Shown in pieces: positions 5,696 to 46,148 of a DNA stretch of 64,000 bases. Position 1 is the stretch's first letter. Every line of letters starts with the position of its first letter. The position numbers and the translations under genes were made by a program. This stretch comes from Nitrosopumilus sp. (GTDB taxonomy: Archaea > Thermoproteota > Nitrososphaeria > Nitrososphaerales > Nitrosopumilaceae), in assembly GCA_963662625.1 (NCBI GenBank), contig OY759726.1, positions 1 to 64,000 on the forward strand, given 5' to 3'. Below the pieces are notes generated by a model. That model saw only the letters and a list, made by a program, of their open reading frames with translations, searched no databases and was not told the DNA's origin.

Positions 5696-8525
5696 TGAGG
5701 TCACCACCCCTACACTGTCTTGGATGCCCCGCCTGACAGGGATTTCCCGTGCCTCCCACACGTGATCATGCACGCCAGGAAGTAGGACCGCCTGTCCCTC
5801 CAGGGCTTCCCGCCCTTGATCCGGCCGCCTGTCTTTCGGGACACCGCCACGTGCCGCAGGCCGCGCCCGGGGGCGCTGTCCGTGGGCCCCGCCCCCCCCC
5901 CCGTGCCCCGGGAACGCAGACCGGCGGGGCAGCGGCGCCTGCAGCCTGCCCGCCAGGGGGGCAGGCGCGGTGCCCCCGGCGTCCCCGTGCCCGAACGGCA
6001 GCCTGCGCATCCCAGACCCAGTACTTGAAAATGTACTAGCCGGCAGACGCCTGGTTGGGCCAGGCCCGGCCGCCATACGCCGCGCACGCGGCCAGCCTCA
6101 CCATGTACTCCAGCATGATCGCCAGCCGGACCGGGGCGGTGTCGCGCCTCCCGTACCACCCGGCGGACCATTCCACCGAGATCATCCACGGGTCGTGCAT
6201 GACCAGCGCCATGAAGAACATGAACGTCCTGACTGGGGGGTTCGTGCTGGTGGTCCTGGGCCTGGCCTTCTCGGCGTCCCCGTGCCCCGTCCCTGTCCCC
6301 CACCTCTTCCTGTGCTCGTCGGGGACGTCGGCGGCTCGGATCGCCCTGCCGGCGCCGGCGTTGGTGGCGTACGCCAGGTACCTCTCCTGCGCGTCCTCCG
6401 AGTCCCACCCGTCCTCGCCCTCCTTCGGGACCATCGCCAGGGCGGACGGCTCCCTGGCCCTCCCGTCCCGGGGCGCCGGGCGTGCGGGGACGCCGCGGCC
6501 CTCTCCCCGCGCGCGTGCTCCCCCACGGCCCCCTTCGCGCCGGCCGTCCGCGACGCGGGCATGATGAGCCCGTGGCCCGATCTGGACAGCTCCCCGACGA
6601 CCCCTGCCGAGAAGAAGCCCCGGCCCGGCAGGACCAGCCCCGGGCGGACGCCCGCGCCAGCGCAGTCACGCAGCAGTTCACGCACGGTCTCGGCCCCCGT
6701 GCTCCCCTTCTTGGGCCTGCACGCCAGGTTCAGCCCCGGCCCGTCCACCATCTGGGCGGTGGCGTACCCCCCGGAGCGCGACGTCCCGTTCCCGTGCCTC
6801 GCGCGCACCAGCTGCTCCCCCCCGGTGGCGGGGTTCCTGCCGTGCCTGGGCATCGGGCGGCAGGCCGGGGCCACGGCGTGGGACGCCCCCCTGATGATCC
6901 CGGCGCGACGGGCCCCGCGCACCGTGGAGCGCAGGGCGTCCCTGCACCTGCCCTCCATGGTGCCGGGATCCCGGCACGCCCCCCCTATCCTGGACAGGAA
7001 CCACGCCGACGACGGCACGCGGCGGGGCCCGTGGCGCACGGCGAGCGCCCCGGTGGCGCCCGACGCGCACGAGCGGTCCCTGCACACCGGTACCAACACG
7101 CGCACGAAGTCGGCCATGCCGCACGCGGCGTTGTGCCGGCCCGAGAACCTGATGCCCGCCTTCCCAAGCAGCCGTTAGTCTGTTGCACAACTCGGCACGA
7201 TCCCCGGGCCGTGGCCAGGCCGTGCCGCTTGGAGTCCCTACGCCCCCGCCTCCCCCGCCCACCGGTTGTACTGGGCCACCCTGAGCCTTACCTCCTGCAC
7301 GATGTTCTCCCACCTGCGCGAGTGCACGTGGTCCCCGAACATCCTCTTGAACGCCGATATGATTATCTCGATCAGCCACCTCCTGCCGTACCCCTTCCTG
7401 GCCTTCCAGTACCGGGCGTTCTCCTCCCTCTCCCTCGTGCCCATCCTGCCGGCGCGCGCCTCCGGGCCGCCCCCCAGCTGGTCCCGCACCGCCTCGCCCC
7501 ACGCGCCGCCGGCGCCCTTGCCCCTGGCGGTGGACGCTACCTTTACCGGGATGATAGGCCCCACGCCCATGTCGCGGCACCTCCGCATATTGTCCCGCGA
7601 CGCGTACGCCCCGTCGGCGATCAGGCGCGCACCGTGGGAGCCGGGCGGCTGGCCGCACTGCAGCGCGAGCGGCGCCACGCCGCTCGCGAGGAGGTTGGGC
7701 GGGGGCGAGTCCACGCGCGGCAGGGGATCCCCCGCCGCGGCTGCCTTCCCGCGGATCAGCGCCATGCGCCTGTCCTGCTTCCCGCCCTGCTTCCCCGCCG
7801 GCTTCCCGTCCGGCTTCCCGTCCGGCTTCCCGCCCGGCTTCCCGCCACGCGGCCCCGCCACGGTTCCCAGGAGCTCCTTCAGCATGGGGGAGTCGCCCGT
7901 CCTGTCGTCGGTCACCACCGCCGCGAGTATCTTCTTCGTGTCGGCGTCGGCCAGCAGGTGCAGCTTGACGAACCCGCGCTTCACCTTCCACTTCTTCCGT
8001 ATCCACTCGCCCCGGTTGCACTGCTTCAGGCCCGTGGCGTCGGCCAGCAGGGTCATGGGCTGGCCGCCGCCGGAGACGCGGACGACTCCCCCGCCGATGT
8101 CCACGTCGAGGCGCGCCATCCTCCTGGCCAGCACCGAGTAGTGCGGCGCGCCGTGCCCCCCCAGCATCCCCGCGAGGAGCCCGGACAGCTGCCTGTACTG
8201 GACCCCGAGCGAGGTCCTCACCGCGGCGGCGGCCATGACCAGCGCCCCGGCGTACCTGAACGGGGCGCCCTCCTTGCCGGCGTTGGCCTCCCTCAGGTCG
8301 TCCTCCCAGCCGGGGTCATACGACACAGCCAGGCCCCTCCCGCGCCTGACGTATTTCTCGTTGTCGGTCGCAGCCAACGGGGACGGTGCGCGGCCGTGAT
8401 CCAAGGCCTTTTCGGTTTGACATGGTTGGGCCGGGGGTTCAACTGTTTAGACCCGGCAATTTCTGGCAGTTGTGCAACAAGCTAGCAGCCGTGGCAACGT
8501 TTTAAACGCCTTGCCCACCACCTCA
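5696..8525 (-). mobile_element. Decayed ISH3-family element, interrupted at its 5' end by IS5 copy 1
   Basis: YATN...HRKRWG...RPRTTSTNPPVRTFMFF resembles the ISH3 C-terminal signature; removing the IS5 restores MPRLLGKAGIRFSG; TGAGGT at both ends. Confidence 0.7.
7176..8484 (-). mobile_element. IS5-family element copy 1 (transposase 7238-8404)
   Basis: DDE motifs ADATG, IADGAY, RWLIE; TIR TAGTCTGTTGCACAACT; 8-bp TSD gcagccgt (7168-7175, 8485-8492). Confidence 0.92.
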
Positions 8526-14890: not shown

Positions 14891-15947
14891 CGCGGCAAGC
14901 CTGACACTGCACATGAAAGACACTGCCATGCCAACAGGGAGGGGGTTCCTTCCCAAGACTGGGGCGGGGCACCTCGGGAAGATCCACAGGACGGAGACGG
15001 ATCCGAAGGCACACGCGCGGCTGCTCGCGTACGTCATGCGCAAGGAGGGCGCGCCCATGCGCCAGATAGGCGGGGCGCTGAACCGGCCCTATTCCACGGT
15101 GCGCGGGTGGCTCATGCGCGCCATGCAGATGGGAACCCGCGGCAGGCACGACGAGAGGAGGCCCGGCGCCCCGCCGAAGCTGGACGGGCCGCAGCTGGGG
15201 CAGCTCAAGAAAGACCTCCTCGCGGGCTCGCAGGGGTTCGGGTCGGGCCTGTGGACCGCCCGTCTCCTAGCGGTCCACATAGAGAGGAGGTTCGGTGTGC
15301 GGTACGGCACCTCCGGGATATACGAGATGCTGCACAGGATCGGCTTCTCCAGGCAGACCCCCCGGCCCAGGCACCCCAAGCCAGCCTCGGAATCCGAGCG
15401 GAGGGAGTTTAAAAAAAGCAAGGCGCGCCGTCTCGTACTACTCGAGGGGGTACGCCGTCGTCGCCCAGGACGAGGTGTCCCACATAATCGGGCTGGTGCA
15501 GAAGAAGACGTGGGCACCACGGGGCGCCGGGGCCACGGCCCCGTCCACGCTGTCGAGGCAGAGGTTCTGCTCGTTTGGCGCGCTGCACCGGGACGGGTTC
15601 TGCCTCTCGTTCTATTACAGGGCAAACGGGGACAGCTTCACGGGCTTTCTCGACAGGCTCCGCAGGAAGTTCGGGAAGGTGCTCGTCCTTGCGGACAACG
15701 CGGGCTCCACAAGTCACGCAAGGTGATGAAAGCCGTCGGGGGCCACGGTGGGGACGTCGTGCTCAGGCACTTTCCCGCCTACACGCCAGACCCCAGCCCG
15801 GCAGGGGGGCAGTGGCGCAACATGAGGTTGCACACTGCCAACAGGCTGTACGGGTCGGCCGACTAGATGAAGGAATCAATAGGGACGATGCTATGCACGG
15901 GGGAGATCAAGGTCGCCAAGATGAGCGATTATCTAATGTGATCACTA
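14888..15947 (+). mobile_element. IS630-family element with frameshifted transposase; left end deleted
   Basis: HTH ORF, slippery TTTAAAAAAA at about 15408, then QDE, DNA and PAYTPD motifs; right TIR tgagcgattatctaatgtgatcacTA pairs with the left end preserved at 25029. Confidence 0.85.
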
Positions 15948-16031
15948 CCCCACTCATGCGCAAGGGCGCCAGGCCCACACCGTACAAGGGGTCGGTCCAT
16001 CGTGGCAACTGCACCTGGGTGGTTATCATGT
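15948..16031 (-). mobile_element. IS110-family end fragment (copy B)
   Basis: Aligns with 18631-18714 including the sub-terminal inverted repeat and CATGT junction. Confidence 0.75.
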
Positions 16032-16071
16032 GTTCATGCATGTTTATTAGCCGGGGGCTGGCACCAAGCGC

Positions 16072-16353
16072 ATGGGCTTCGACGAGCAGCTGGAGGAGCT
16101 GATTGCCCAGACGATCAACGGGGCGGCCGCCACGATCCCGGCGTACATGGAGGACATCAGCCGGAACAGGGACGCCCTGGGGGTTGAGGACCCGAGGGAG
16201 TTCGTCTACGGGATGGTGATGGGGATGGCCCTCGGGATGGGCGGCGCCGTGCTCAGCGCGCAGAAGGAGGCCCCCACCGAGGAGGACCAGATGAAGGTCA
16301 GGGACATCGTGTACAGGAGCATCCCGCAGGTAAGGGAGCGGATATTCAAGTAG
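16072..16353 (+). CDS. Conserved hypothetical protein
   Basis: Host-like codon usage; EFVYGMVMG helical motif; TATA-like tttatta upstream. Confidence 0.75.
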   Translation: MGFDEQLEELIAQTINGAAATIPAYMEDISRNRDALGVEDPREFVYGMVMGMALGMGGAVLSAQKEAPTEEDQMKVRDIVYRSIPQVRERIFK

Positions 16354-16587
16354 GCGCGCCGGCTCCCGCGCCGGGAACCTGCGGGCGGCCCGCGTGGAAT
16401 GCCCACGCCTCATGGCAGCGGACGTTCCGTGGTGGCGCCGGGGCCGCCGGCAGCGGAGGCCGTGGCGGGCATCTACGTGGCCGCCCCGGTACTCGCGGCA
16501 TGCCTGGCGGCGGGGGCCGCCAGGGGGCGGTCCCGCCGCGGCGCGTGATACAAAGGTATATCATGACTGGGGCCCCACCCAGGTCAT

Positions 16588-16866
16588 ATGCCCAACAAGA
16601 TAAAGTGCTCCCACGTACTGGTGGAGAGGCAGGGACAGGCCCTAGAGGTGCTCGAGCGGCTCAAGGGCGGCGACAAGTTCGGCAGGATCGCCAGGGAGGT
16701 CTCGATCGACTCGGGCAGCGCGAAGAAAGACGGGAACCTGGGGTACTTTGGCAGGGGTAAGATGGTGAAGCAGTTCGAGGAGGCCGCCTTCAGGCTGCAG
16801 GTGGGCGAGGTCTCCGGGCCCGTGAAGACGCAGTACGGGTACCACGTCATCAAGAGGTTCGGGTGA
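16588..16866 (+). CDS. pinA: Parvulin-type peptidyl-prolyl isomerase
   Basis: IKCSHVLV, GNLGYFGRGKMVKQFEEAAF, VKTQYGYHVIK. Confidence 0.95.
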   Translation: MPNKIKCSHVLVERQGQALEVLERLKGGDKFGRIAREVSIDSGSAKKDGNLGYFGRGKMVKQFEEAAFRLQVGEVSGPVKTQYGYHVIKRFG

Positions 16867-17309
16867 CCGCCCCCTCCCGGGCCGGCGCGGATCCCGTCGA
16901 GGATTGTGGCGCGCGCGTCTTTCATGGCGCGGGCCCGACGGGCAACCCCGGAAGACGCGGGCGGGTTTGCCGCAGCAACGTCCCGTTTCTGGGCATGGCG
17001 ATTCTGGGTACGCGGGCGCGCCCAGGCCCCGGCGCGCAGGGACGGGCCGTACGGATCTTGATCGCGCAATGCCACCTCCCCTTCGGATAAATCCTATGCG
17101 CGGAGGCGCGGATCGATGGACTTACTTGCCGCACCATGTCGCGTTTTCGGGCATAAAAAGCCTGCGCTTGTTTTCGGGCCGTGCCTTAAATAGACCCGCC
17201 GCTGGGCCGCCCGCGCTCGCGCAAGCGGGGGCGAGCTCCGGTGACAACGGACGACGCGGAGCAGCGCTGGGAAATAAGGATGGCGGGATACCTGCGTCGA
17301 CACCGCACC

Positions 17310-18714
17310 CATGTTAACCACCCAGGTGCAGTTGCCGCAACGCATCCCGCGGTTTTTCCGATCCGTGACTGGGTTGCACGGCATGGGATTCATGGCCGGC
17401 GCCGGCAAGACGGTCCGGGATGCGGGCAGCGCGGGGGGCCGCCCCCGGCGCGCCTTCCCCGTCCCGGCCGGCCTGCGCCTGCACGGCCCCCCGCTGCGGG
17501 ACCCGTGGGGCGTCCTGGCGGCCGGCATGTGCCGCATCATGGTGACCATCTTGTGGGCCACCACCATGGTTGCCGGCCCATGCCTGTCCGCGTGCCTCCG
17601 GCGCGCGGACGCGTACGCGGCCTCCGTCCCGGCGTCGTGCCGCACGGCGGCGTCCGCGGCCCCGCGCATGGCCCGGCTGGCCAGGCTGCCGGGGCCGGTC
17701 TTCTTGATCCTCCCCGCGTGCGGCCGGTTCCCCGGCCGGCAGGCCGCCGGGCACGGCCCGGCCCACGACGCCGCCTGCCTTGGCCCCCTGGACCCCGGGG
17801 GCGTCCCCATCCCGGGGGCCGTCGGCACCGCGGCGAGCGCGCCGGCGCCGGCCGTGCCGGCCGGCAGCCTCGCGTCGCCGTTGTGGGCGGCCCCCGTCCC
17901 GGGGAGCCCCCCCCCCCCCCGTCACGGAGATCTCCCCCGCCAGGTGCCCCGCCTGCCGGGCGCGCCGGCCCGGGACCGACCCGTCGTGCCCGGGGCCCGG
18001 CCCCGCGGACTCCGGCTGCCCCAGGGCCCTTTCGGGGTGCATGGCGGGGGCGCCCGTTTGGATGCCGTGGCGGCCCGGGAGGCTGCGGGCGCGGCTTGCC
18101 GCGCGCGCCCTGTCCCGGGCCGGCCCCGCCCCCTGCCCGGCCACCGCGCGCATCCCCCCGGCGTGGCCCGGGGGGACGCAGCGCCCCGGCACCATGCCCG
18201 TCCCCGGCACCTGCGCCATCTTCCCTGCGCCAATCCTGTCGGTCTTCTTGGCGGTCCTGGCCATCAGGGCCGTCCTGTGCGTGTTGGCCAGTCTGGTGCC
18301 GGTCCCGGCCGCCCCGGAGGCGCCAGGCGCCCTGTCCCGCATGCTGCCAGTCGTCCCGCGGGCGGCCCGGCAGGGGCCGCCGCCCAGGCACCTGCGCGCC
18401 ATCGCCCCAGCGAACTTCGCCGCGCCGTCCCGGGCGTCGGGGTACCGCCCCCTCCCGGGAACCTTCCCGTTCCCGCCCGCCACGCACGCGCCGCGCTTTC
18501 CCTTCACCATGCCTGTCCCCATGCCTGTCTTTCCCGTCCTTTCCTGTCGCCTCCTTCCGGATGCCTGGCGGATCGGAAGCCGCGCACGCCCATCAGGGCG
18601 CGAAGCCCAGTGACGCGGCGGCCCGGGTTGCCCCATTCAACAGAAAGGGCGCCAGGCCCACGCGCTACCGGGGGCCGGTCCATCGGGGCAACTACGCCTG
18701 GGTGGTTATCATGT
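17310..18714 (-). mobile_element. Decayed IS110-family element (copy A) with sub-terminal inverted repeats
   Basis: KKTDRIGA (KTDxxDA-like) and GRIKKTG...VVAHKM motifs; 22-bp IRs taaccacccaggtgcagttgcc (17315-17336) / ggcaactacgcctgggtggtta (18687-18708); CATGT at both junctions. Confidence 0.8.
18600..18686 (-). ncRNA. Candidate bridge/seek-type guide RNA (target-binding loop) of the IS110 element
   Basis: Stem GCCC/GGGC encloses a 9-mer identical to one target flank, a UGGG-GCAA-CCCG hairpin, and a 9-mer complementary (3 wobbles) to the other flank; RNA boundaries unknown. Confidence 0.6.
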
Positions 18715-18995
18715 GTTCAACAGACTAACCAGCAGGTTAAAGTTTTAAAAGCTGAAAAACTTGCAGGCCGCGTTCTGCGTCTCAGTGATACGAGCCTGTT
18801 GCGCTTATGGCACAAGGCATGCAGTCTCCGCCGCAGCCCCATGCGGCCGAATGCCTGCTTTCGCGGCCCCGCGGGCCGCCGGGACGGCGCCGGCCCCCAT
18901 GTTCCGCCCCCTCCGGGCGGCTTGCGCGTCCCACCTTGCCTCGCCGGGCCCCGCGCCGGCGCGCGGTTCCGGGCGGCCGGATCCCGCCCCGCGGC

Positions 18996-21900
18996 CTACG
19001 GGGCGGGCCCCAGGCCGATTTCCATGGGGTGCGTGGAGCCCGGCTCGGGGGCGATCGCCAGGAACGTCCCGCGCACGCCGGTGGCGGGGTCGGGCGGGGA
19101 CGTGGCCGCGTAGCCGGCGGGCACCGCCACCTGCGCGAGCCAGTCGGCGGGGACCAGGCCCGCCATGGTCGCGGTGCCGCCGGGCCCGGTCACCGCCGCC
19201 TCGAGCTCCGCGGTCGTGTACGTGTAGGTGTGGACGGTCACCCCCGGGAACGGCGGCTCCCCGGGATCCCGTTCCCCGTCGGAGTCGTCGTCGCGGTACG
19301 CGGAGACCTCGAGCGTCACGGCCTCTTCCGGGGGCACCTGGCGGAACCCGACGTCCCACGCCGAGGTGGCGCCCAGCTCCGGGCCCAGGTACGCGTAAGG
19401 GCTGCCGGTGGTGAGGGTGTGGTCGAACGGGAAGTAGTGCGTCTGGACCAGGGTGGCGTGCGGGTGCGGGGTGACGGCGCCAAACGCGTATATCCCGTCG
19501 GGGCCGGTCACGGCGGTCCGGGCCTCCCCGGTGGACACGTCCACCGCGACCATCGCATAGCCCGGGATCGCCCCCTCCCCCGAGTCCCGGACGCCGTTCC
19601 CGTTGGCATCTGAGAACACCGTCCCGCGTATGGACGCGTCGGCCCTTGACACCGACACGGAGGAGCCGTCGGTGGCGGCGGTCGCGCGCGGCCCGGCGTT
19701 GCCCGCGGCGTCCTCGAAGTCGATCCCAAACTCCACGGGGCCCGCGGGATCCGTGCCGTCGACGGCCCTAGCGGCGCTCCACGAGCCGCCTCCCGCGCTC
19801 ACCGGCTCGGAGTGGTTCCCGTTGATGGCCACCGACACGCCCGCTATCCCCTCGGACGCCGTGAACTCCAGGGTGACCGCGTCTCCCGCCCGGGCGGTTC
19901 CCGGGACGGCGCCTGACGATGCCACCGAGACCGCGGTCAGCGAGGGGGCCTGGCCGTCGCCCACCGGGACGGTGAGCGGTCCCGCGACGGCGTTCCCGTC
20001 GCCGTCCACGATTCCCGTCCCCACGTACATCGCCCCGGCCGCGTCCGGCGGTGCAGGCGGGCCCGCAAACCCAAGCGTGACGGTATCGGTGCCGGATCCG
20101 GAGATTCCCGTGAACTTCCTGACCGCGGCCTCGCCGGACATAGTGATGTCGACAAAGTCGCCCAGCGCGGCGGCGACTGGCTTTGAGAACTCCACGGTGG
20201 CCTGGTTGGGGCCGGTGACGGCGGCCGAGGAGATCGCGGGCCACGCGTACTCCCCCGTGCCGGCGACCACCCGCCCCGTGGCCCAGGAATGCAGGGCGTC
20301 AGAGTACCCGAACGTGCCGTCCCCGTCGAACGTCACGGAGTACGGCGCCCCCCTGGAAAGCAGGCCGCTGGCAAACTGCTTGCCGCCAGACGGGTCGCCG
20401 GCGACGGACACGGCCGAGTTTCCGGCGTTGACCCAGGTCACCGTGTCCCCGGGCGAGACTTCCAGCGTTTCCGGGAAGAAGCAGGGGTCGCAGCCCGGGT
20501 CGGCGTTGTCCAGCGCCAGTATGTCGGAGCCGGCAAGCATGGAGACGTCGACCCTGCCCGTCCCGTCCCGGTCGGACTTTGCGTGGCGGGACTCCACCGT
20601 GGACTCCAGCAGGGCCTGGATCTCGCCTGCCGTGGCGCCGGGGTGCTTTTCCATGGCCAGCGCGGCGGCGCCGGCGGCGTGCGGGGCGGCCGCCGACGTG
20701 CCGCAGTACGCGTCGTATGCGTAGGCCGTGGTGCTGACGCAGGTGGGCGCCGTGACGTCGGGCTTGGCCCTGCCGTCCAGCGTGGGGCCTTGGGAGCTGT
20801 AGGGCTCCAGGGCGTCCGTCCTCCAGTACTTTGCCCCCACGCTCAGGGAGCCGGGCGAGTCCGCGGGGATGACGACGCTGGAGCGCGCCACCGCGTACTC
20901 GCTCAGGTCGTGGCGGATCGTGAACAGCTGAAAGTCCGCGTCCCCGGCGGCCGAGCGCCCGTCTATCGACACGTGGACGGTGGCGTCGCTCCGGAAGGCG
21001 CGCTCGACCTTCTCGAACGGGCGGTACCCCGGCTGGGCGTTGGCCGAGAGATCCAGCAGGTTCGAGTCCCCGTCTGCCAGGCGGAGGTCGTAGTCCTGCG
21101 AGGGGGAGCCCCACCAGCTGAGGATCACCGTCAGCGTTTCCCCGGCGCCCACGTCGATGTCGATCGACTCGTCGTGGCCCCGGAAGTTGTGCCAGCCGTC
21201 GCCGTCGGGATCCGAGAACCGGCCCTGCCAGTGCTTGTCCGCGGAGTTTCCCGCGGAATTGACCCACAGTATCCCGCTTTCCCTCGCCTCGCCCACCTTT
21301 TGGGATATCACGCTCGTGCCGTCTGCGGGTCCCGGGCTGTTGAACCACGCAAGGGACATTGAGACTATGTCGATGTCTCCCCGGGAGATGATGTGGTCGA
21401 CCAGGTTCAGAAACTCGATCCTGGTGCCAAAGTTGTAAAGGTACAGCTCGACGTCCGGGGCGACGTCCACTATGACCTCGGCCGAGGCCGTGCCGTGGCG
21501 GCTGTTGCCGCCCGCGATGCCAGAAGAGGAGTCAAAGGACGCGTGCCCGGCGACGTTCCCCGCGATCTCCGGGTTGTGGATGTCAAATCCGGTGTCGATC
21601 ACCGCCACCTTGACCCCCTTGCCGGTGTGCCCCGCAGAGTTGGCGGCGTCGGAGCCCATCACCCCGGCGCCCTCGGTCACCGTCGTGCCGCTGGAAAGCC
21701 AGACGCTCGCGCGCGTCGCGTCGAAGCCCGACGCCCCGGCGGCCGCCGTCCCGTATCCCTGGCCCGCGGGCCCGCCCGCGTGGGCCGGCAGGATCACCGG
21801 GGCCGGCTTGGCCGGGAGCGCGACGAGCCTGACGTTCTCGTCTGCCGCCACGGCCCCCAGGCTCCCCACGGGGGCCGCCGCCTGCACCAGCTCCCCGTAC

Positions 21901-22178
21901 TGCGTCTCCACCGCCATCCCCAGGCCGCCCGGGACGGGCGCCCCCTCCCGGGCCATCTCCAGCGCCACCCGGACCGTCCGGCCGTCGGCGCCCTCCCGGG
22001 CGGCCGCGTTCTGCGCGGGCCGGTCTCCCGCCGCCGACCCGTAGAGGGCCGCGAGCCGGGAGTCCATGTTGTGGAACTTTTTTTCGGCGCCCGCCGCGGG
22101 GGGCGGGTCCTGGGCGTGGGCCGCCGGGGCCAGCGCCGCGAAGGCCAGGACCAGCGAGAACGCGAGCAGGCGATTCAC
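18996..22178 (-). CDS. Secreted S8 subtilisin-like protease with cupredoxin-like, Ig-like and SdrD-B-like domains
   Basis: Signal peptide; triad VIDTG / HGTASA / GTSAAAPH; VFSDANGNGVRDSGE repeats; GTG start 22178 about 25 bp after TTTATAA. Confidence 0.9.
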   Translation of the reverse strand: MNRLLAFSLVLAFAALAPAAHAQDPPPAAGAEKKFHNMDSRLAALYGSAAGDRPAQNAAAREGADGRTVRVALEMAREGAPVPGGLGMAVETQYGELVQAAAPVGSLGAVAADENVRLVALPAKPAPVILPAHAGGPAGQGYGTAAAGASGFDATRASVWLSSGTTVTEGAGVMGSDAANSAGHTGKGVKVAVIDTGFDIHNPEIAGNVAGHASFDSSSGIAGGNSRHGTASAEVIVDVAPDVELYLYNFGTRIEFLNLVDHIISRGDIDIVSMSLAWFNSPGPADGTSVISQKVGEARESGILWVNSAGNSADKHWQGRFSDPDGDGWHNFRGHDESIDIDVGAGETLTVILSWWGSPSQDYDLRLADGDSNLLDLSANAQPGYRPFEKVERAFRSDATVHVSIDGRSAAGDADFQLFTIRHDLSEYAVARSSVVIPADSPGSLSVGAKYWRTDALEPYSSQGPTLDGRAKPDVTAPTCVSTTAYAYDAYCGTSAAAPHAAGAAALAMEKHPGATAGEIQALLESTVESRHAKSDRDGTGRVDVSMLAGSDILALDNADPGCDPCFFPETLEVSPGDTVTWVNAGNSAVSVAGDPSGGKQFASGLLSRGAPYSVTFDGDGTFGYSDALHSWATGRVVAGTGEYAWPAISSAAVTGPNQATVEFSKPVAAALGDFVDITMSGEAAVRKFTGISGSGTDTVTLGFAGPPAPPDAAGAMYVGTGIVDGDGNAVAGPLTVPVGDGQAPSLTAVSVASSGAVPGTARAGDAVTLEFTASEGIAGVSVAINGNHSEPVSAGGGSWSAARAVDGTDPAGPVEFGIDFEDAAGNAGPRATAATDGSSVSVSRADASIRGTVFSDANGNGVRDSGEGAIPGYAMVAVDVSTGEARTAVTGPDGIYAFGAVTPHPHATLVQTHYFPFDHTLTTGSPYAYLGPELGATSAWDVGFRQVPPEEAVTLEVSAYRDDDSDGERDPGEPPFPGVTVHTYTYTTAELEAAVTGPGGTATMAGLVPADWLAQVAVPAGYAATSPPDPATGVRGTFLAIAPEPGSTHPMEIGLGPAP

Positions 22179-22595
22179 GCGACGTGTTCCTTCCGCGCGC
22201 GTTATAAATCGAAGGGGCGCGTGCAACATTCCCAGAAGTGCCTCAAGAGCCCGCCGCAGTCACGCGTGTTTGGTTGCGGGGCGCCGCCGGGGCCCCCGCC
22301 TCCGGCGCATCCGCAGGGCACTCCTGGGAAGACTGCATGCTGACGCCGGCCATAAACCTCAACCACGTAACCCGGGCACGGATCGAGAAGCCGCTGGATG
22401 CATTACAGCAACTACTGGGCGGTTGACACAGGTGCGGTCTCGGGGTATTTCAGAACGCGCCCGATCAGGCTTGACGCCTGCAAGTTCCCGTACCGGCCCA
22501 TCTAAGTGGAAATTTTCAATACTCGTCATCACAGAGTTAAAGTTTACGTAACTCTTACTCATTCTTTTTATTAACTCAATTTTGATAAACAGGGC

Positions 22596-30137: not shown

Positions 30138-32459
30138 TCAATTGTACGGAAAGTCGGTCCGCATCGGATCAAGAGGACGGTAGCCGACTATTTTAGGCTG
30201 TACCGATCACGGAAGGCCATGACAGGAAGACTTACTGAGGGGTCCCGGAAGTACCTGGTCAGACAGCGAGAGAAGGGCGTGCCGTCATCCCAAGTGGCGC
30301 GGGATCTGGGAATCACCGCCAGGCACGTGCGGAGGCTGTGGGCGAGGTTCCTGGAGACCGGAACGACGGCGGCGGGGATGGGCAGGCCGCGCACCTGCAT
30401 GACCGCCGCCATGATACGGCTGGTCACCGGCGCCCACGGGAGGCGCCCTGCGGGCGCGGTGCGCACCGCGAGGCGCCCCAGGAGGTAGTCTGTTGCACAA
30501 CTGCCAGAAATTGCCGAGTCTAAACAGTTGAACCCCCGGCCCAACCATGTCAAACCGAAAAGGCCTTGGATCACGGCCGCGCACCGTCCCCGTTGGCTGC
30601 GACCGACAACGAGAAATACGTCAGGCGCGGGAGGGGCCTGGCTGTGTCGTATGACCCCGGCTGGGAGGACGACCTGAGGGAGGCCAACGCCGGCAAGGAG
30701 GGCGCCCCGTTCAGGTACGCCGGGGCGCTGGTCATGGCCGCCGCCGCGGTGAGGACCTCGCTCGGGGTCCAGTACAGGCAGCTGTCCGGGCTCCTCGCGG
30801 GGATGCTGGGGGGGCACGGCGCGCCGCACTACTCGGTGCTGGCCAGGAGGATGGCGCGCCTCGACGTGGACATCGGCGGGGGAGTCGTCCGCGTCTCCGG
30901 CGGCGGCCAGCCCATGACCCTGCTGGCCGACGCCACGGGCCTGAAGCAGTGCAACCGGGGCGAGCGGGTACGGAAGAAGCGGGAGGCGAGGCGCGGGTTC
31001 GCCAGGCTGCACCTGCTGGCCGACGCCGACACGAAGAAGATGCCCGCGGCGGTGGTGACCGACGACAGGACGGGCGACTCCCCCATGCTGAAGGAGCTCC
31101 TGGGAACCGTGGCGGGGCCGCGTGGCGGGAAGCCGGACGGGAAGCCGGCGGGGAAGCAGGACAGGCGCATGGCGCTGATCCGCGGGAAGGCAGCCGCGGC
31201 GGGGGATCCCCTGCCGCGCGTGGGCTCGCCCCCGCCCAACCTCCTCGCGAGCGGCGTGGCGCCGCTCGCGCTGCAGTGCGGCCAGCCGCCCGGCTCCCAC
31301 GGGGCGCGCCTGATCGCCGACGGGGCGTACGCGTCGCGGGACAACATGCGGAGGTGCCGCGACATGGGCGTGGGGCCTATCATCCCGGTCAAGGTGGCGT
31401 CCACCGCCAGGGGCAAGGGCGCCGGCGGCGCGTGGGGCGAGGCGGTGCGGGACCAGCTGGGGGGCGGCCCGGAGGCGCGCGTCGACAGGATGGGCACGAG
31501 GGAGAGGGAGGAGAACGTCCGGTACCGGGAGGCCAGGAAGGGGTACGGCAGGAGGTGGCTGATCGAGATAATCATATCGGCGTTCAAGAGGATGTTCGGG
31601 GACCACGCGCGCTCGCGCAGGTGGGAGAACATCGTGCAGGAGGTAAGGCTCAGGGTGGCCCAGTACAACCGGTGGGCGGGGGAGGCGGGGGCGTAGGGAC
31701 TCCAAGCGGCACGGCCTGGCCACGGCCCGGGGATCGTGCCGAGTTGTGCAACAGACTACCAGGAGGGACCATTATATAAGCTACTGCTCCGCATGCCGGA
31801 TATTGAAGAAGGCCGGGGCGGTGGCCGCGTCTGCCGCAAAATCGAGGAGGCGCAAGTGGGTGCGCCACGGGCGCAAATGCCCGGACGCCATGTGGCACGT
31901 CGACTGGCACGGGACGAAGGACCCCCGGTTCAGGGGCCTCCAGCTGGTCGCGTACCTGGACGACGCCTCGCGGTGCGCGGTGGCCGCGCGCGTGTTCACG
32001 CAGGCCACGTCGGAGAACGCCGTGCTGGCGCTCAGGGACGCGATCGGGCGGTTCGGCACGCCGGCCACCGTGCTCTCCGACAACGGCCCGTGCTTCGTGG
32101 GCCGGAACGGCCGCAGGAAGGCCCCTCCCCGGCCGTGGAAGCCCACCGCGTCCGGGGCGGAGCTGCTGGGCCTCGGGATCGAGCTCATAAACTCCAGGCC
32201 GCACCACCCCCAGACCAACGGGAAGGCCGGGAGGTTCTTCCGGAGCGCGGGGGACGGGACATGGCACTACGAGAGCATGTCCGAGTACATGGCGTACTAC
32301 AACGAGGACAGGCCGCGCTTCTCCCTGGACATCGACAACTACCAGACCCCGCTGAAGGCCTTCCATGACAAGGAGGCCGTGGCAGCGATCAGGGAGAGCA
32401 ACCCGGGATGGATGGAGGCGGAGGCGGATGACTAGCGGACCGACTTTTCATATACTACA
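30138..32459 (+). mobile_element. IS481-family element interrupted by IS5 copy 2
   Basis: WHVDW, YLDDASR, SDNG, HPQTNGK motifs; IR core aaagtcggtccgc; perfect 15-bp TSD acaagttacccatac (30123-30137, 32460-32474). Confidence 0.9.
30486..31758 (+). mobile_element. IS5-family element copy 2 (transposase 30566-31696)
   Basis: Perfect TIRs; 8-bp TSD ccaggagg (30478-30485, 31759-31766). Confidence 0.92.
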
Positions 32460-44851: not shown

Positions 44852-46148
44852 TAGTCTGTTGCACAACTCGGCACGATCCCCGGGCCGTGGCCAGGCCGTG
44901 CCGCTTGGAGTCCCTACGCCCCCGCCTCCCCCGCCCACCGGTTGTACTGGGCCACCCTGAGCCTTACCTCCTGCACGATGTTCTCCCACCTGCGCGAGTG
45001 CACGTGGTCCCCGAACATCCTCTTGAACGCCGATATGATTATCTCGATCAGCCACCTCCTGCCGTACCCCTTCCTGGCCTTCCAGTACCGGACGTTCTCC
45101 TCCCTCTCCCTCGTGCCCATCCTGTCGACGCGCGCCTCCGGGCCGCCCCCCAGCTGGTCCCGCACCGCCTCGCCCCACGCGCCGCCGGCGCCCTTGCCCC
45201 TGGCGGTGGACGCCACCTTGACCGGGATGATAGGCCCCACGCCCATGTCGCGGCACCTCCGCATGTTGTCCCGCGACGCGTACGCCCCGTCCGCGATCAG
45301 GCGCGCCCCGTGGGAGCCGGGCGGCTGGCCGCACTGCAGCGCGAGCGGCGCCACGCCGCTCGCGAGGAGGTTGGGCGGGGGCGAGCCCACGCGCGGCAGG
45401 GGATCCCCCGCCGCGGCTGCCTTCCCGCGGATCAGCGCCATGCGCCTGTCCTGCTTCCCCGCCGGCTTCCCGTCCGGCTTCCCGTCCGGCTTCCCGTCCG
45501 GCTTCCCGCCACGCGGCTCCACCACGGTTCCCAGGAGCTCCTTCAGCATGGGGGAGTCGCCCGTCCTGTCGTCGGTCACCACCGCCGCGAGTATCTTCTT
45601 CGTGTCGGCGTCGGCCAGCAGGTGCAGCTTGACGAACCCGCGCTTCACCTTCCACTTCTTCCGTATCCACTCGCCCCGGTTGCACTGCTTCAGGCCCGTG
45701 GCGTCGGCCAGCAGGGTCATGGGCTGGCCGCCGCCGGAGACGCGGACGACTCCCCCGCCGATGTCCACGTCGAGGCGCGCCATCCTCCTGGCCAGCACCG
45801 AGTAGTGCGGCGCGCCGTGCCCCCCCAGCATCCCCGCGAGGAGCCCGGACAGCTGCCTGTACTGTACCCCGAGCGAGGTCCTCACCGCGGCGGCGGCCAT
45901 GACCAGCGCCCCGGCGTACCTGAACGGGGCGCCCTCCTTGCCGGCGTTGGCCTCCCTCAGGTCGTCCTCCCAGCCGGGGTCATACGACACAGCCAGGCCC
46001 CTCCCGCGCCTGACGTATTTCTCGTTGTCGGTCGCAGCCAACGGGGACGGTGCGCGGCCGTGATCCAAGGCCTTTTCGGTTTGACATGGTTGGGCCGGGG
46101 GTTCAACTGTTTAGACCCGGCAATTTCTGGCAGTTGTGCAACAGACTA
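44852..46148 (-). mobile_element. IS5-family element copy 3 (transposase 44914-46068)
   Basis: Perfect TIRs; 8-bp TSD gtcgcccg (44844-44851, 46149-46156). Confidence 0.92.

Follow-up and report, generated by a model that had tools for sequence, protein, structure and literature searches.

A dead IS110-family insertion sequence in a Nitrosopumilus genome and the putative compact bridge RNA encoded in the left end of its family

RNA guidance of insertion sequences by bridge RNAs and seek RNAs was established in 2024, and NCBI already names the corresponding protein family "RNA-guided", so the principle considered here is not new. IS621 of the IS110 group has a recombinase of the DEDD plus Tnp-domain type, and its RNA is encoded upstream of the gene, within the left end (PMC11208160; PMC11208158). 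This RNA is 177 nt long, has a 5' stem-loop, and forms two loops, each built of a stem, a guide, a stem-loop and a guide, with the left guide preceding the right. Its left guides read like the top strand, so that their pairing partner would be the bottom strand; its right guides are complements of the top strand. A CT core dinucleotide, included in the guides, is duplicated at both junctions. The subterminal repeats of the IS621/IS110 group measure 2–3 bp. The IS1111 elements with seekRNAs (ISEc11, ISKpn4 and ISPa11) have long subterminal repeats that are extended asymmetrically by a few nucleotides (7 or 6 nt and 3 nt), a non-coding region downstream of the transposase gene, and an RNA in which the complement of the top strand lies 5' of the complement of the bottom strand (Siddiquee et al. 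2024, PMC11187229). The same source mentions a few IS1111-family elements with an upstream non-coding region, and Durrant et al. 2024 (PMC11208160) proposed that the RNA has moved between ends. A literature search on bridge RNAs of Thaumarchaeota found no paper on them, and the supplementary tables of the 2024 papers may already list such elements; the words "Thaumarchaeota" and "Nitroso" are absent from the preprint of Vaysset et al.

The element described here was found in a 64,000-nt stretch of a Nitrosopumilus sp. contig (OY759726.1, positions 1 to 64,000), referred to below as the window. It shares with IS621 the type of recombinase, the encoding of the RNA upstream of the gene in the left end, the plan of the two loops, the strand sense of the left and right guides, and a core dinucleotide that is duplicated at both junctions and included in the guides. 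It differs from IS621 in its archaeal host, in its core (TG, or AG in two elements), in the order of the guides (right guide first in both loops), in subterminal inverted repeats of 26–30 bp and in the length of the RNA (~118 nt between the strands of the closing helix). The bases that match the donor are also placed differently: here they are the two that follow the core in the left target guide, whereas the handshake bases of IS621 adjoin the right guides. With the IS1111 elements it shares the guide order, the short asymmetric extensions (left, 5 nt; right, 3 nt) and long subterminal repeats, although these exceed the 7–17 bp given for IS1111 (11–13 bp in Siddiquee et al., PMC11187229), and its non-coding region, unlike theirs, lies upstream of the transposase gene in all elements studied here. 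Taken broadly, the IS110 family accommodates the element by its domains, its DEDD/Ser residues, the covariation of its guides and its core dinucleotide; of the features of the narrower IS110 group it has the left-end RNA but neither the guide order nor the very short repeats. A plasmid protein search with the transposase placed it in neither group, the best match being a haloarchaeal IS110-family gene (33.9% identity), with rhizobial matches at ~30%. The architecture is mixed, IS110-like in the position of the RNA and IS1111-like in guide order and long subterminal repeats, which bears on how the IS110 and IS1111 groups diverged.

The window contains a dead copy (copy A) of a ~1.4-kb IS110-family insertion sequence from a Nitrosopumilaceae-type archaeon, an ammonia oxidiser (Table 1). 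Its boundaries were obtained by comparing occupied with uninterrupted IS5-type repeat sites. The inverted repeats reported in an earlier note on the window are present, with a conserved CGTAG-type motif inside, and that note was also right that the transposase is decayed. The copy A ORF had no Pfam match at E ≤ 1 because the gene has decayed, and three of its four invariant acidic positions carry substitutions (D9G, E61G and D103G; D100 is kept). An A occupies the position of the invariant S266, within a stretch that no longer aligns with the intact copy c8; the protein alignment of the two breaks down beyond about residue 215, and copy A carries 209 substitutions relative to c8. The genome holds eight full-length copies, copy A included, together with fragments, and c8, located elsewhere in the genome, is the only copy that encodes an intact IS110-family RNA-guided transposase. 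Its protein contains PF01548 (6e-28) and PF02371 (6.5e-22) and matches NF033542, "IS110 family RNA-guided transposase", at 242.9 bits (cut-off 140). Residues D9, E61, D100, D103 and S266 are invariant among 22 intact homologues and were assigned putative catalytic roles by analogy with the catalytic residues D11, E60, D102, D105 and S241 of IS621 (PMC11208160; PMC11208158). The non-coding ends of c8 measure 180 nt on the left and 134 nt on the right.

Table 1. Coordinates of copy A, copy B and their features in the window.
Feature	Position	Strand	Details
Copy A, IS110-family element, inactive	17308..18717	-	1410 bp; 85-94% identity to 7 other full-length copies
Element tips as proposed			AACAC... 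(left), ...ATAGG (right)
Core dinucleotide TG (CA on + strand), right-end junction	17306..17307	-	Seen in genome and relatives
Core dinucleotide TG, left-end junction	18718..18719	-	Comparison of occupied and uninterrupted sites
Left target, outer 8 nt of IS5-family terminal inverted repeat	18720..18727	-	TAGTCTGT on transposase strand
Subterminal inverted repeat, left arm	18687..18716	n/a	30 nt, 87% complementary to right arm
Subterminal inverted repeat, right arm	17307..17336	n/a	Partner of left arm, repeat I2
Transposase remnant of copy A	17442..18537 (approximate limits)	-	Start codon now ACG
Site of conserved right-end A/T box, destroyed in copy A	17388..17398	-	TAGCTATAAAT in c8
Putative bridge-RNA region (P0 closing helix, target loop, donor loop)	18562..18688	-	Covariance model R1: 86.6 bits, E 6e-24
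Right target guide + core complement	18661..18669	-	GGUAGCG-CG; 5' of left target guide
Left target guide + core	18636..18644	-	UCUGU + UG core + AA; AA matches first two element bases
Right donor guide, mutated	18612..18617	-	CGCGUC here, UGUGUC in c8; inside "guide 2" of earlier note
Left donor guide	18587..18593	-	AUGGG-CG here, AUAGG-UG in c8; matches right end + core
Copy B, left-end remnant	15948..16034	-	87 bp; cut off inside target loop; adjoins IS630-like element
Copy B left target guide	15953..15961	-	GCGCA-UG-AG; flank 16035-16041 reads ATGCA-TG

An uninterrupted site reads TAGTCTGT-TG-CACAACT and an occupied site reads TAGTCTGT-TG-(element)-TG-CACAACT, so the core TG is duplicated. 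TG follows directly after 9 of the 11 right ends in the genome, and the same holds in relatives. Sequences of the TAGTCTGT type had 24 matches in the genome at ≤1 mismatch, nine of which adjoin the element while 15 are uninterrupted IS5-type repeats. The IS5 assignment was made from a match to NF033579 (173.5 bits), and the IS5 copies that adjoin the element start at about its right boundary. The target family in this genome comprises an IS5-type insertion sequence as well as a related small element. Insertion is into the terminal inverted repeat of the IS5-family element, and the target consists of five variable nucleotides, the TG core and about seven further nucleotides. The terminal inverted repeat of another mobile element is reportedly a preferred target in a host of another domain as well. 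This geometry differs from the 9+6+9 target proposed earlier, whose presumed 6-nt spacer, CACATG, is element sequence. The 9-nt flank identity of copy A on which that proposal drew is real, but positions 18716–18717 of the flank are bases of the element and 18718–18719 are the duplicated core.

The putative left-end RNA of ~118 nt is conserved in relatives (24 loci from Nitrosopumilaceae and allied genomes) and lies upstream of the transposase gene in every locus examined. Of 151 genomes sampled from the class, 19 contain a match to the RNA model. One locus with a homologue of the transposase (L056, 41% identity) has no anchor motif upstream and no match to the model at E ≤ 0.01, and a search of Rfam with three copies (E ≤ 10) returned no family beyond chance-level matches. 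Both loops are built of an outer stem, a guide, a hairpin and a second guide, the target loop running 5' to 3' from right guide through hairpin to left guide, and both were recovered independently by RNAalifold. In an alignment of 62 distinct sequences, made with a model that did not include helix P0, 90.8% of cells are paired compared with at most 52.7% in slid controls, and 23 of 28 pairs show changes on both sides; the observed value was reached in 0/500 shuffles. The helices thus covary. The two halves of the GCCC...GGGC stem drawn earlier come from different hairpins. When c8 or copy A was folded singly, the result did not recover the comparative structure (the guides paired with each other, and the z-scores were ordinary at -1.66 and -1.13, respectively), and we therefore relied on the comparative structure. 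RNAalifold found no consensus 5' stem-loop between the left tip and P0. An extension of the outer stem (GAU/AUC) was paired in only 63.9% and was replaced by helix P0.

The 9-mer TTCAACAGA has only two matches in 64 kb, at 18636–18644 in the target loop and at 18716–18724 in the flank. Such an identity between slot and flank might arise by chance in GC-rich, repeat-rich DNA: the earlier note had only two copies, and its second pairing, GC-rich and with three wobbles, is of a chance-like kind. With 0.20 matches expected (the shuffle mean) and no permutation reaching the observed match, chance is refuted for this first guide, and its probability as an explanation is vanishingly small. Among 23 loci, the left target guide matches its own flank at 9/9 positions in 13, 8/9 in seven and 7/9 in three. 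Of 49 distinct left target guides, 35 match at 9/9 (19) or 8/9 (16), with eight at 7/9, five at 6/9 and one at 5/9; the mean against the flanks of other elements is 5.54, and the observed mean was reached in 0/2000 permutations, though the permutation counts given here overstate significance somewhat because related sequences are not independent. Positions 6–7 of the guide covary with the site, and the two relatives whose core is AG rather than TG have AG in guide and site alike. The right target guide pairs with the seven nucleotides after the right-end core (22 loci; mean 4.68/7 with its own partner and 1.88 with those of other loci, 0/20000 permutations); in c8 it forms only 4/7 pairs with the IS5 repeat, and one wobble in addition. 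The right donor guide pairs with the first six nucleotides of the left end (20 loci; mean 5.10/6 with its own left end and 4.01 with those of other loci, 0/20000 permutations), and no clear core complement was found 3' of it. In 22 of 24 loci, the left donor guide recurs as an exact 7-mer, in five variants, at the right end of its own element, with the core included. The second 9-mer, earlier taken as the guide for the other flank, is in fact the right donor guide, and its covariation is with the left tip of the element itself. With relatives added, sequence comparison strongly supports the view that this archaeal IS110-family element has, in a non-coding loop of its left end, a guide covarying with the site of insertion; the claim had been made before, with its anatomy misread.

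Natural differences between guides had also been proposed. Near-identical elements of one genome (L062 compared with L061 and L063) have different left guides, each matching its own distinct flank. In the present genome, the full-length copy c7 has a differing left guide and a standard flank, matching at best 5/9 and out of register, with 0/5 in the variable part. Two old fragments match their flanks in the variable part at 2/5 (f1533) and 0/5 (f695). Copy B adjoins an IS630-like element with HTH and DDE_3 domains in 14913–15866, and covariance model R1 gave a partial match to it (15918–16005, 33.8 bits). As reported before, the slot of copy B (CTCATGCGC, 15953–15961) agrees with its flank (TTCATGCAT, 16033–16041) at 6/9 positions and the three differences are all transitions; in the variable part the match is 3/5 and both mismatches are transitions. 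Non-standard guides within this genome alone are poor evidence.

The flank that matches the slot could instead be the tip of the element itself, in which case the loop would serve only donor recognition or self-complementarity and target choice would not be guided by RNA. The 12 nt adjoining the left end (TAGTCTGTTGAA) are identical or nearly so in nine family-1 copies, and copies A, c2 and c7 have an IS5-type left flank without IS5 sequence on the right. However, the same 10 nt run on into CACAACT in the 15 element-free IS5-type terminal repeats, and relatives with the same left tips differ completely in the five nucleotides before TG, which track the guide. The true tips are matched by a separate loop. 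We consider it extremely unlikely that the matching flank belongs to the element.

Similarly, the left-end structure could be an ordinary 5' leader acting in translation or stability of the transposase, with the protein reading the inverted repeats and the target. The length of the subterminal repeats (30 nt, 87%) and their conserved motif agree with this, as does a strong ribosome-binding motif (AAGGAGGTGA) located after the RNA structure. A leader, however, has no need of unpaired segments that track DNA outside the element and at its tips; three such segments pass permutation tests and the fourth is an exact match. Moreover, NF033542 carries an RNA-guided annotation, and this is how IS621 and the IS1111 elements work. 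We regard an ordinary leader as very improbable.

The explanation that we favour with high confidence is that copy A is a dead IS110-family copy and that the left end of its family encodes a compact bridge RNA of ~118 nt with target and donor guides. By analogy with IS621, this RNA would be made and bound by the DEDD/Ser transposase, and the complex would recombine the joint between right end and left end in a circular form of the element with the target at the TG core. In the target loop, the 5' guide is the complement of the top strand on the right-hand side of the insertion point, and the 3' guide is identical to the top strand on the left-hand side, comprising the five variable nucleotides, the TG core and the first two bases of the element. 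In the donor loop, the 5' guide pairs with the left tip and the 3' guide repeats the right tip plus TG. The target in this genome is the terminal inverted repeat of the IS5-family element.

A longer functional RNA might be produced only after excision, by transcription that starts at a promoter-like A/T box of the right end and crosses the circle junction, with a right-end segment competing with P0. The box, TAGC(T)ATAAA, lies 87–90 nt from the right end in 11/11 clade loci and occurs in 14 of 29 distinct elements, but elements with right ends of ~45–52 nt have the same RNA and not this box. A right-end segment of the ACGGATCGGAA type pairs with a left-end segment just past the donor loop (own -21.3 compared with -16.6 kcal/mol for others, 0/3000 permutations); the 3' segment, however, is explained in all clades by the left-end helix P0, and the non-Watson-Crick pairs of the duplex (7 G-U and 4 A-C, counted by eye) do not distinguish between an RNA helix and a DNA repeat. 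Four sequencing runs, consisting of DNA-type contigs from one study, were compared. They contain variants of the copies, a loose end consistent with an uninterrupted IS5-type site, and a single head-to-tail joint. In this joint, on a single contig of one of the four runs (X1), the right end rejoins the left end, going back 1408 nt, but it is 3 nt off the exact junction, and no right-end/left-end junction was found in the assembled genome. A longer RNA of this kind seems to us unlikely, if far from negligible, and the compact RNA closed by P0 is preferred.

The locus adds a worked archaeal example, with an assignment for each of the four guides and a covariance model. The ~118-nt RNA, together with natural re-targeting between near-identical elements, suggests a candidate compact recombinase system. 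It is possible, though somewhat doubtful, that the Nitrosopumilaceae clade represents a third class of bridge-RNA transposons, perhaps intermediate between IS110 and IS1111, in which a compact P0-closed left-end RNA occurs together with long subterminal repeats, a TG core and the guide order of IS1111. In such a class, expression might proceed from an archaeal right-end promoter across the circle junction, and dead copies might be mobilised in trans by the intact copy.

As a separate observation, dead insertion-sequence copies display paired TNNA-to-CNNG hypermutation. A literature search on this pattern returned nothing relevant among the matches listed, and it may merit separate study.

The window contains two IS110-family sequences: copy A, a decayed element on the minus strand, and copy B (15948-16034), a left-end remnant that can be aligned to the right-hand 87 bp of copy A. 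At its two ends, copy A carries an inverted repeat of 30 nt with 87% complementarity. An earlier note based on the sequence alone had placed the 9-mer TTCAACAGA both within copy A (18636-18644) and in its outside flank (18716-18724), and these proved to be its only two matches in the window (shuffle mean 0.20). The equivalent comparison for copy B also held, with agreement at 6/9 positions and three differences that are all transitions. The source genome has eight full-length copies (85% to 94% identity) in addition to fragments, and the only intact gene is that of c8 (locus L008/L031), which lies outside the window. The 363-aa c8 protein matches PF01548 (6e-28) and PF02371 (6.5e-22), and scores 242.9 bits on the NF033542 model "IS110 family RNA-guided transposase" (cut-off 140). 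Residues D9, E61, D100, D103, and S266 are invariant in 22 intact homologues. The copy A transposase is decayed, as had been proposed: a Pfam search with its 440-aa minus-strand frame returned no match at E<=1, the four acidic positions read G, G, D, and G, and the alignment with c8 is lost after about residue 215. The neighbouring genes of copy A are ordinary.

In transposase orientation, TAGTCTGTTG or a one-base variant lies directly before all copies of this family. With one mismatch allowed, TAGTCTGTTG has 24 occurrences in the genome, of which nine adjoin the IS110-family element and the other 15 continue unbroken as TAGTCTGTTGCACAACT..., the terminal inverted repeat of an approximately 1.27-kb element with an IS5 family transposase (PF01609; NF033579 at 173.5 bits, assigned from a copy outside the window). 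On the right side of c5, c6, and c8, TG-CACAACT is followed by the interior of the IS5-type element, and the right sides of copies A, c2, and c7 are without IS5 sequence. The empty site is TAGTCTGT-TG-CACAACT and the occupied site is TAGTCTGT-TG-[AACAC...ATAGG]-TG-CACAACT. TG is thus the core, and this comparison of unbroken with element-carrying IS5-type repeats sets the limits of copy A at 17308-18717. It also divides the 9-nt "flank" of the earlier note, of which five nucleotides are indeed target, but two belong to the core and two to the element itself.

Unoccupied target sites and neighbouring features in the window
Feature	Positions	Remarks
Unoccupied target sites (TAGTCTGT-TG-CACAACT)	7176-7187, 30486-30497, 31747-31758, 44852-44863, 46137-46148	Ends of three window IS5-family copies
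IS630-like element	14913-15940	Frameshifted; HTH_33/HTH_32 domains, DDE_3 over two frames; its end adjoins and truncates copy B
Neighbour gene	16588-16866	92-aa PPIC-type rotamase (PF00639, 1.3e-23)
Minus-strand ORF	18996-22229	1077 aa; surrounding DNA 70-75% G+C

Homologues of the c8 protein were detected at E<=1e-20 in 71/401 sampled genomes of the class, and the named records that bear them are Nitrosopumilaceae, Nitrosopumilus, and Thaumarchaeota MAGs. Upstream of 24 homologue genes (39% to 100% protein identity) is a conserved non-coding block, in which two stem/hairpin loops were recovered independently by RNAalifold. The proposed structure is 89.6% paired across the 24 loci, compared to at most 57.2% when slid, and nine pairs have changes on both sides, with a covariation score that none of 500 shuffles attained. 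A covariance model built from this structure, without the closing helix P0, matched 14 places in the source genome, including copy A (86.6 bits) and part of copy B, and had matches in 19/151 sampled genomes of the class. P0 was added afterwards on the 62 distinct matched sequences. The structure extended by P0 has 90.8% of its cells paired (slid controls give 52.7% at most) and changes on both sides in 23/28 pairs, and 0/500 shuffles reach the observed values; P0 by itself has such changes in 8/9 pairs. One row (L109) of the P0 alignment and of the larger left-guide set and one count in each of the 71/401 and 19/151 tallies come from genomes marked unpublished, and dropping them would not alter any conclusion.

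The left target guide is the 9-mer immediately 5' of the 3' strand of the target-loop stem. Its best match within 50 nt upstream of the element was 9/9 in 13, 8/9 in seven, and 7/9 in three of 23 loci (L045 was excluded, as its contig ends within the left end), and the match adjoins the left tip in nearly all of them. The cross-pair mean is 5.65 for the 23 loci and 5.54 for a larger set of 49 distinct guides (63 instances), of which 19, 16, 8, 5, and 1 match at 9, 8, 7, 6, and 5 positions. The covariation of guide and flank proposed for copies A and B extends to these elements, with the observed mean reached by 0/5000 permutations (23 loci) and 0/2000 permutations (49 guides), although related elements are not independent in these counts. 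Positions 6-7 of the guide are TG almost throughout, with AG in both guide and site of two elements, and positions 8-9 correspond to the first two bases of the element. The right target guide matches the 7 nt after the right-end core with a mean of 4.68/7 Watson-Crick pairs for own flanks and 1.88 for cross pairs (0/20000 permutations reach the own mean, n=22). As the right end was placed using the left donor guide, independently of the right target guide, the two guides agree on one boundary. Four near-identical copies in one Nitrosopumilaceae MAG record (L061-L064; 129-130 bits with the covariance model) have different left target guides, TTTTG or GGTCG, and matching flanks, ATTTG-TG for L062 and CGTCG-TG for L061, L063, and L034 (the same range as L064). 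These differences amount to natural re-targeting.

The left donor guide is found as an exact 7-mer downstream of the gene within 360 nt in 18/24 loci and farther away in four more; L038 and L060 lacked such a match. It occurs in five variants (ATAGGTG, ATAGATG, ATGGATG, ATGAGTG, and ACAGGTG). The right donor guide pairs with bases 1-6 of the left tip (own mean 5.10/6, cross mean 4.01; 0/20000 permutations reach the own mean, n=20), and a clear core complement after this guide was not seen in the 20 loci. All 11/11 clade loci have a TAGC(T)ATAAA box at a distance of 87-90 nt from the right end, and the box is present in 14/29 distinct elements. A right-end segment pairs with its own left-end segment after the donor loop at -21.3 kcal/mol, compared to -16.6 kcal/mol with those of others (0/3000). 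This left-end segment is accounted for by P0 in all clades. No right-end/left-end junction was found in the assembled genome. A single contig (depth about 21) of X1, one of four runs, carries a head-to-tail joint from L031 position 2726 to 1319; the joint leads from slightly beyond the right end back over 1408 nt to the left core, with a 3-nt offset relative to the exact expected junction.

Flank covariation identifies "guide 1" of the earlier note as a true guide, namely the left target guide. Other parts of that anatomy were not supported. The GCCC and GGGC assigned to one stem belong to two different hairpins, GCCC as the 3' half of that in the target loop and GGGC as the 5' half of that in the donor loop, and "guide 2" (CGCCGCGUC), proposed as a target guide, overlaps both the stem of the donor loop and the right donor guide (UGUGUC in c8). 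In copy A, the actual right target guide occupies 18661-18669 and pairs with the right flank (CGGTGTC) at only 4/7 positions, read by eye.

Other copies also fit imperfectly. In c8, the right target guide agrees with the IS5 repeat at 4/7 positions plus one wobble; compared by eye, its fit to the right flanks of c3 and c4 is closer (6/7). The 15 nt before the c8 left end (CCTAATAGTCTGTTG; L031 1290-1320) are present twice in tandem, which may be a trace of a previous event at this site. The full-length copy c7 (L084; G000 1699626-1701041) has the guide loops of another subtype: its left guide is CGCCA-UG-AA while its flank is the standard TCTGT-TG-AA, and its right flank has AG instead of TG, followed by CGCCA. 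c7 may be a recombinant: an exchange between copies within the first 40-60 nt, which they share, would account for the disagreement of guide and flank.

In the passages describing IS621, the RNA is ordered as stem, left target guide, stem-loop, and right target guide, the left guides have the bottom strand as their partner and the right guides the top strand, and the CT core is contained in each guide (PMC11208160, PMC11208158). The seekRNAs of IS1111 elements are described as having the top-strand complement first, whereas IS110 types are reversed, and IS1111 elements as having subterminal repeats and a non-coding region that is downstream, apart from a few upstream exceptions (Siddiquee et al., PMC11187229). 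The clade studied here has the strand logic common to both groups, resembles IS1111 in guide order and subterminal repeats, and resembles IS110 in RNA position. Vaysset et al. arrived at a total of 662 archaeal IS110 recombinases; the passages of that study examined here describe no archaeal RNA, and the words "Thaumarchaeota" and "Nitroso" are absent from its text.

Copies other than c8 differ from it almost solely by A>G and T>C changes (198/209 in copy A, 89/90 in c3, and 44/44 in c5, which is identical to c6). The direction of mutation is one-way, A:T>G:C, because the outgroup protein consensus sides with c8 in every case, against both c5 (18:0) and c3 (40:0). Changes are paired, T(i)>C with A(i+3)>G, converting 5'-TNNA-3' to 5'-CNNG-3', such that the two adenines lie 3 bp apart, one on each strand. 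c5 has 11 of these pairs (random mean 0.40; 0/2000 shuffles), and at the 46 TNNA motifs of c8, copy A has both bases changed in 29, T alone in two, and A alone in five. Changes unique to one copy are without this bias. Unrelated IS5-type copies have the same paired changes, including the window copy at 30486-31758 with seven pairs among 8+8 changes (random mean 0.06). G+C content per kb ranges from 0.40 to 0.75 across the window, and these swings may be tied to the A:T>G:C process.
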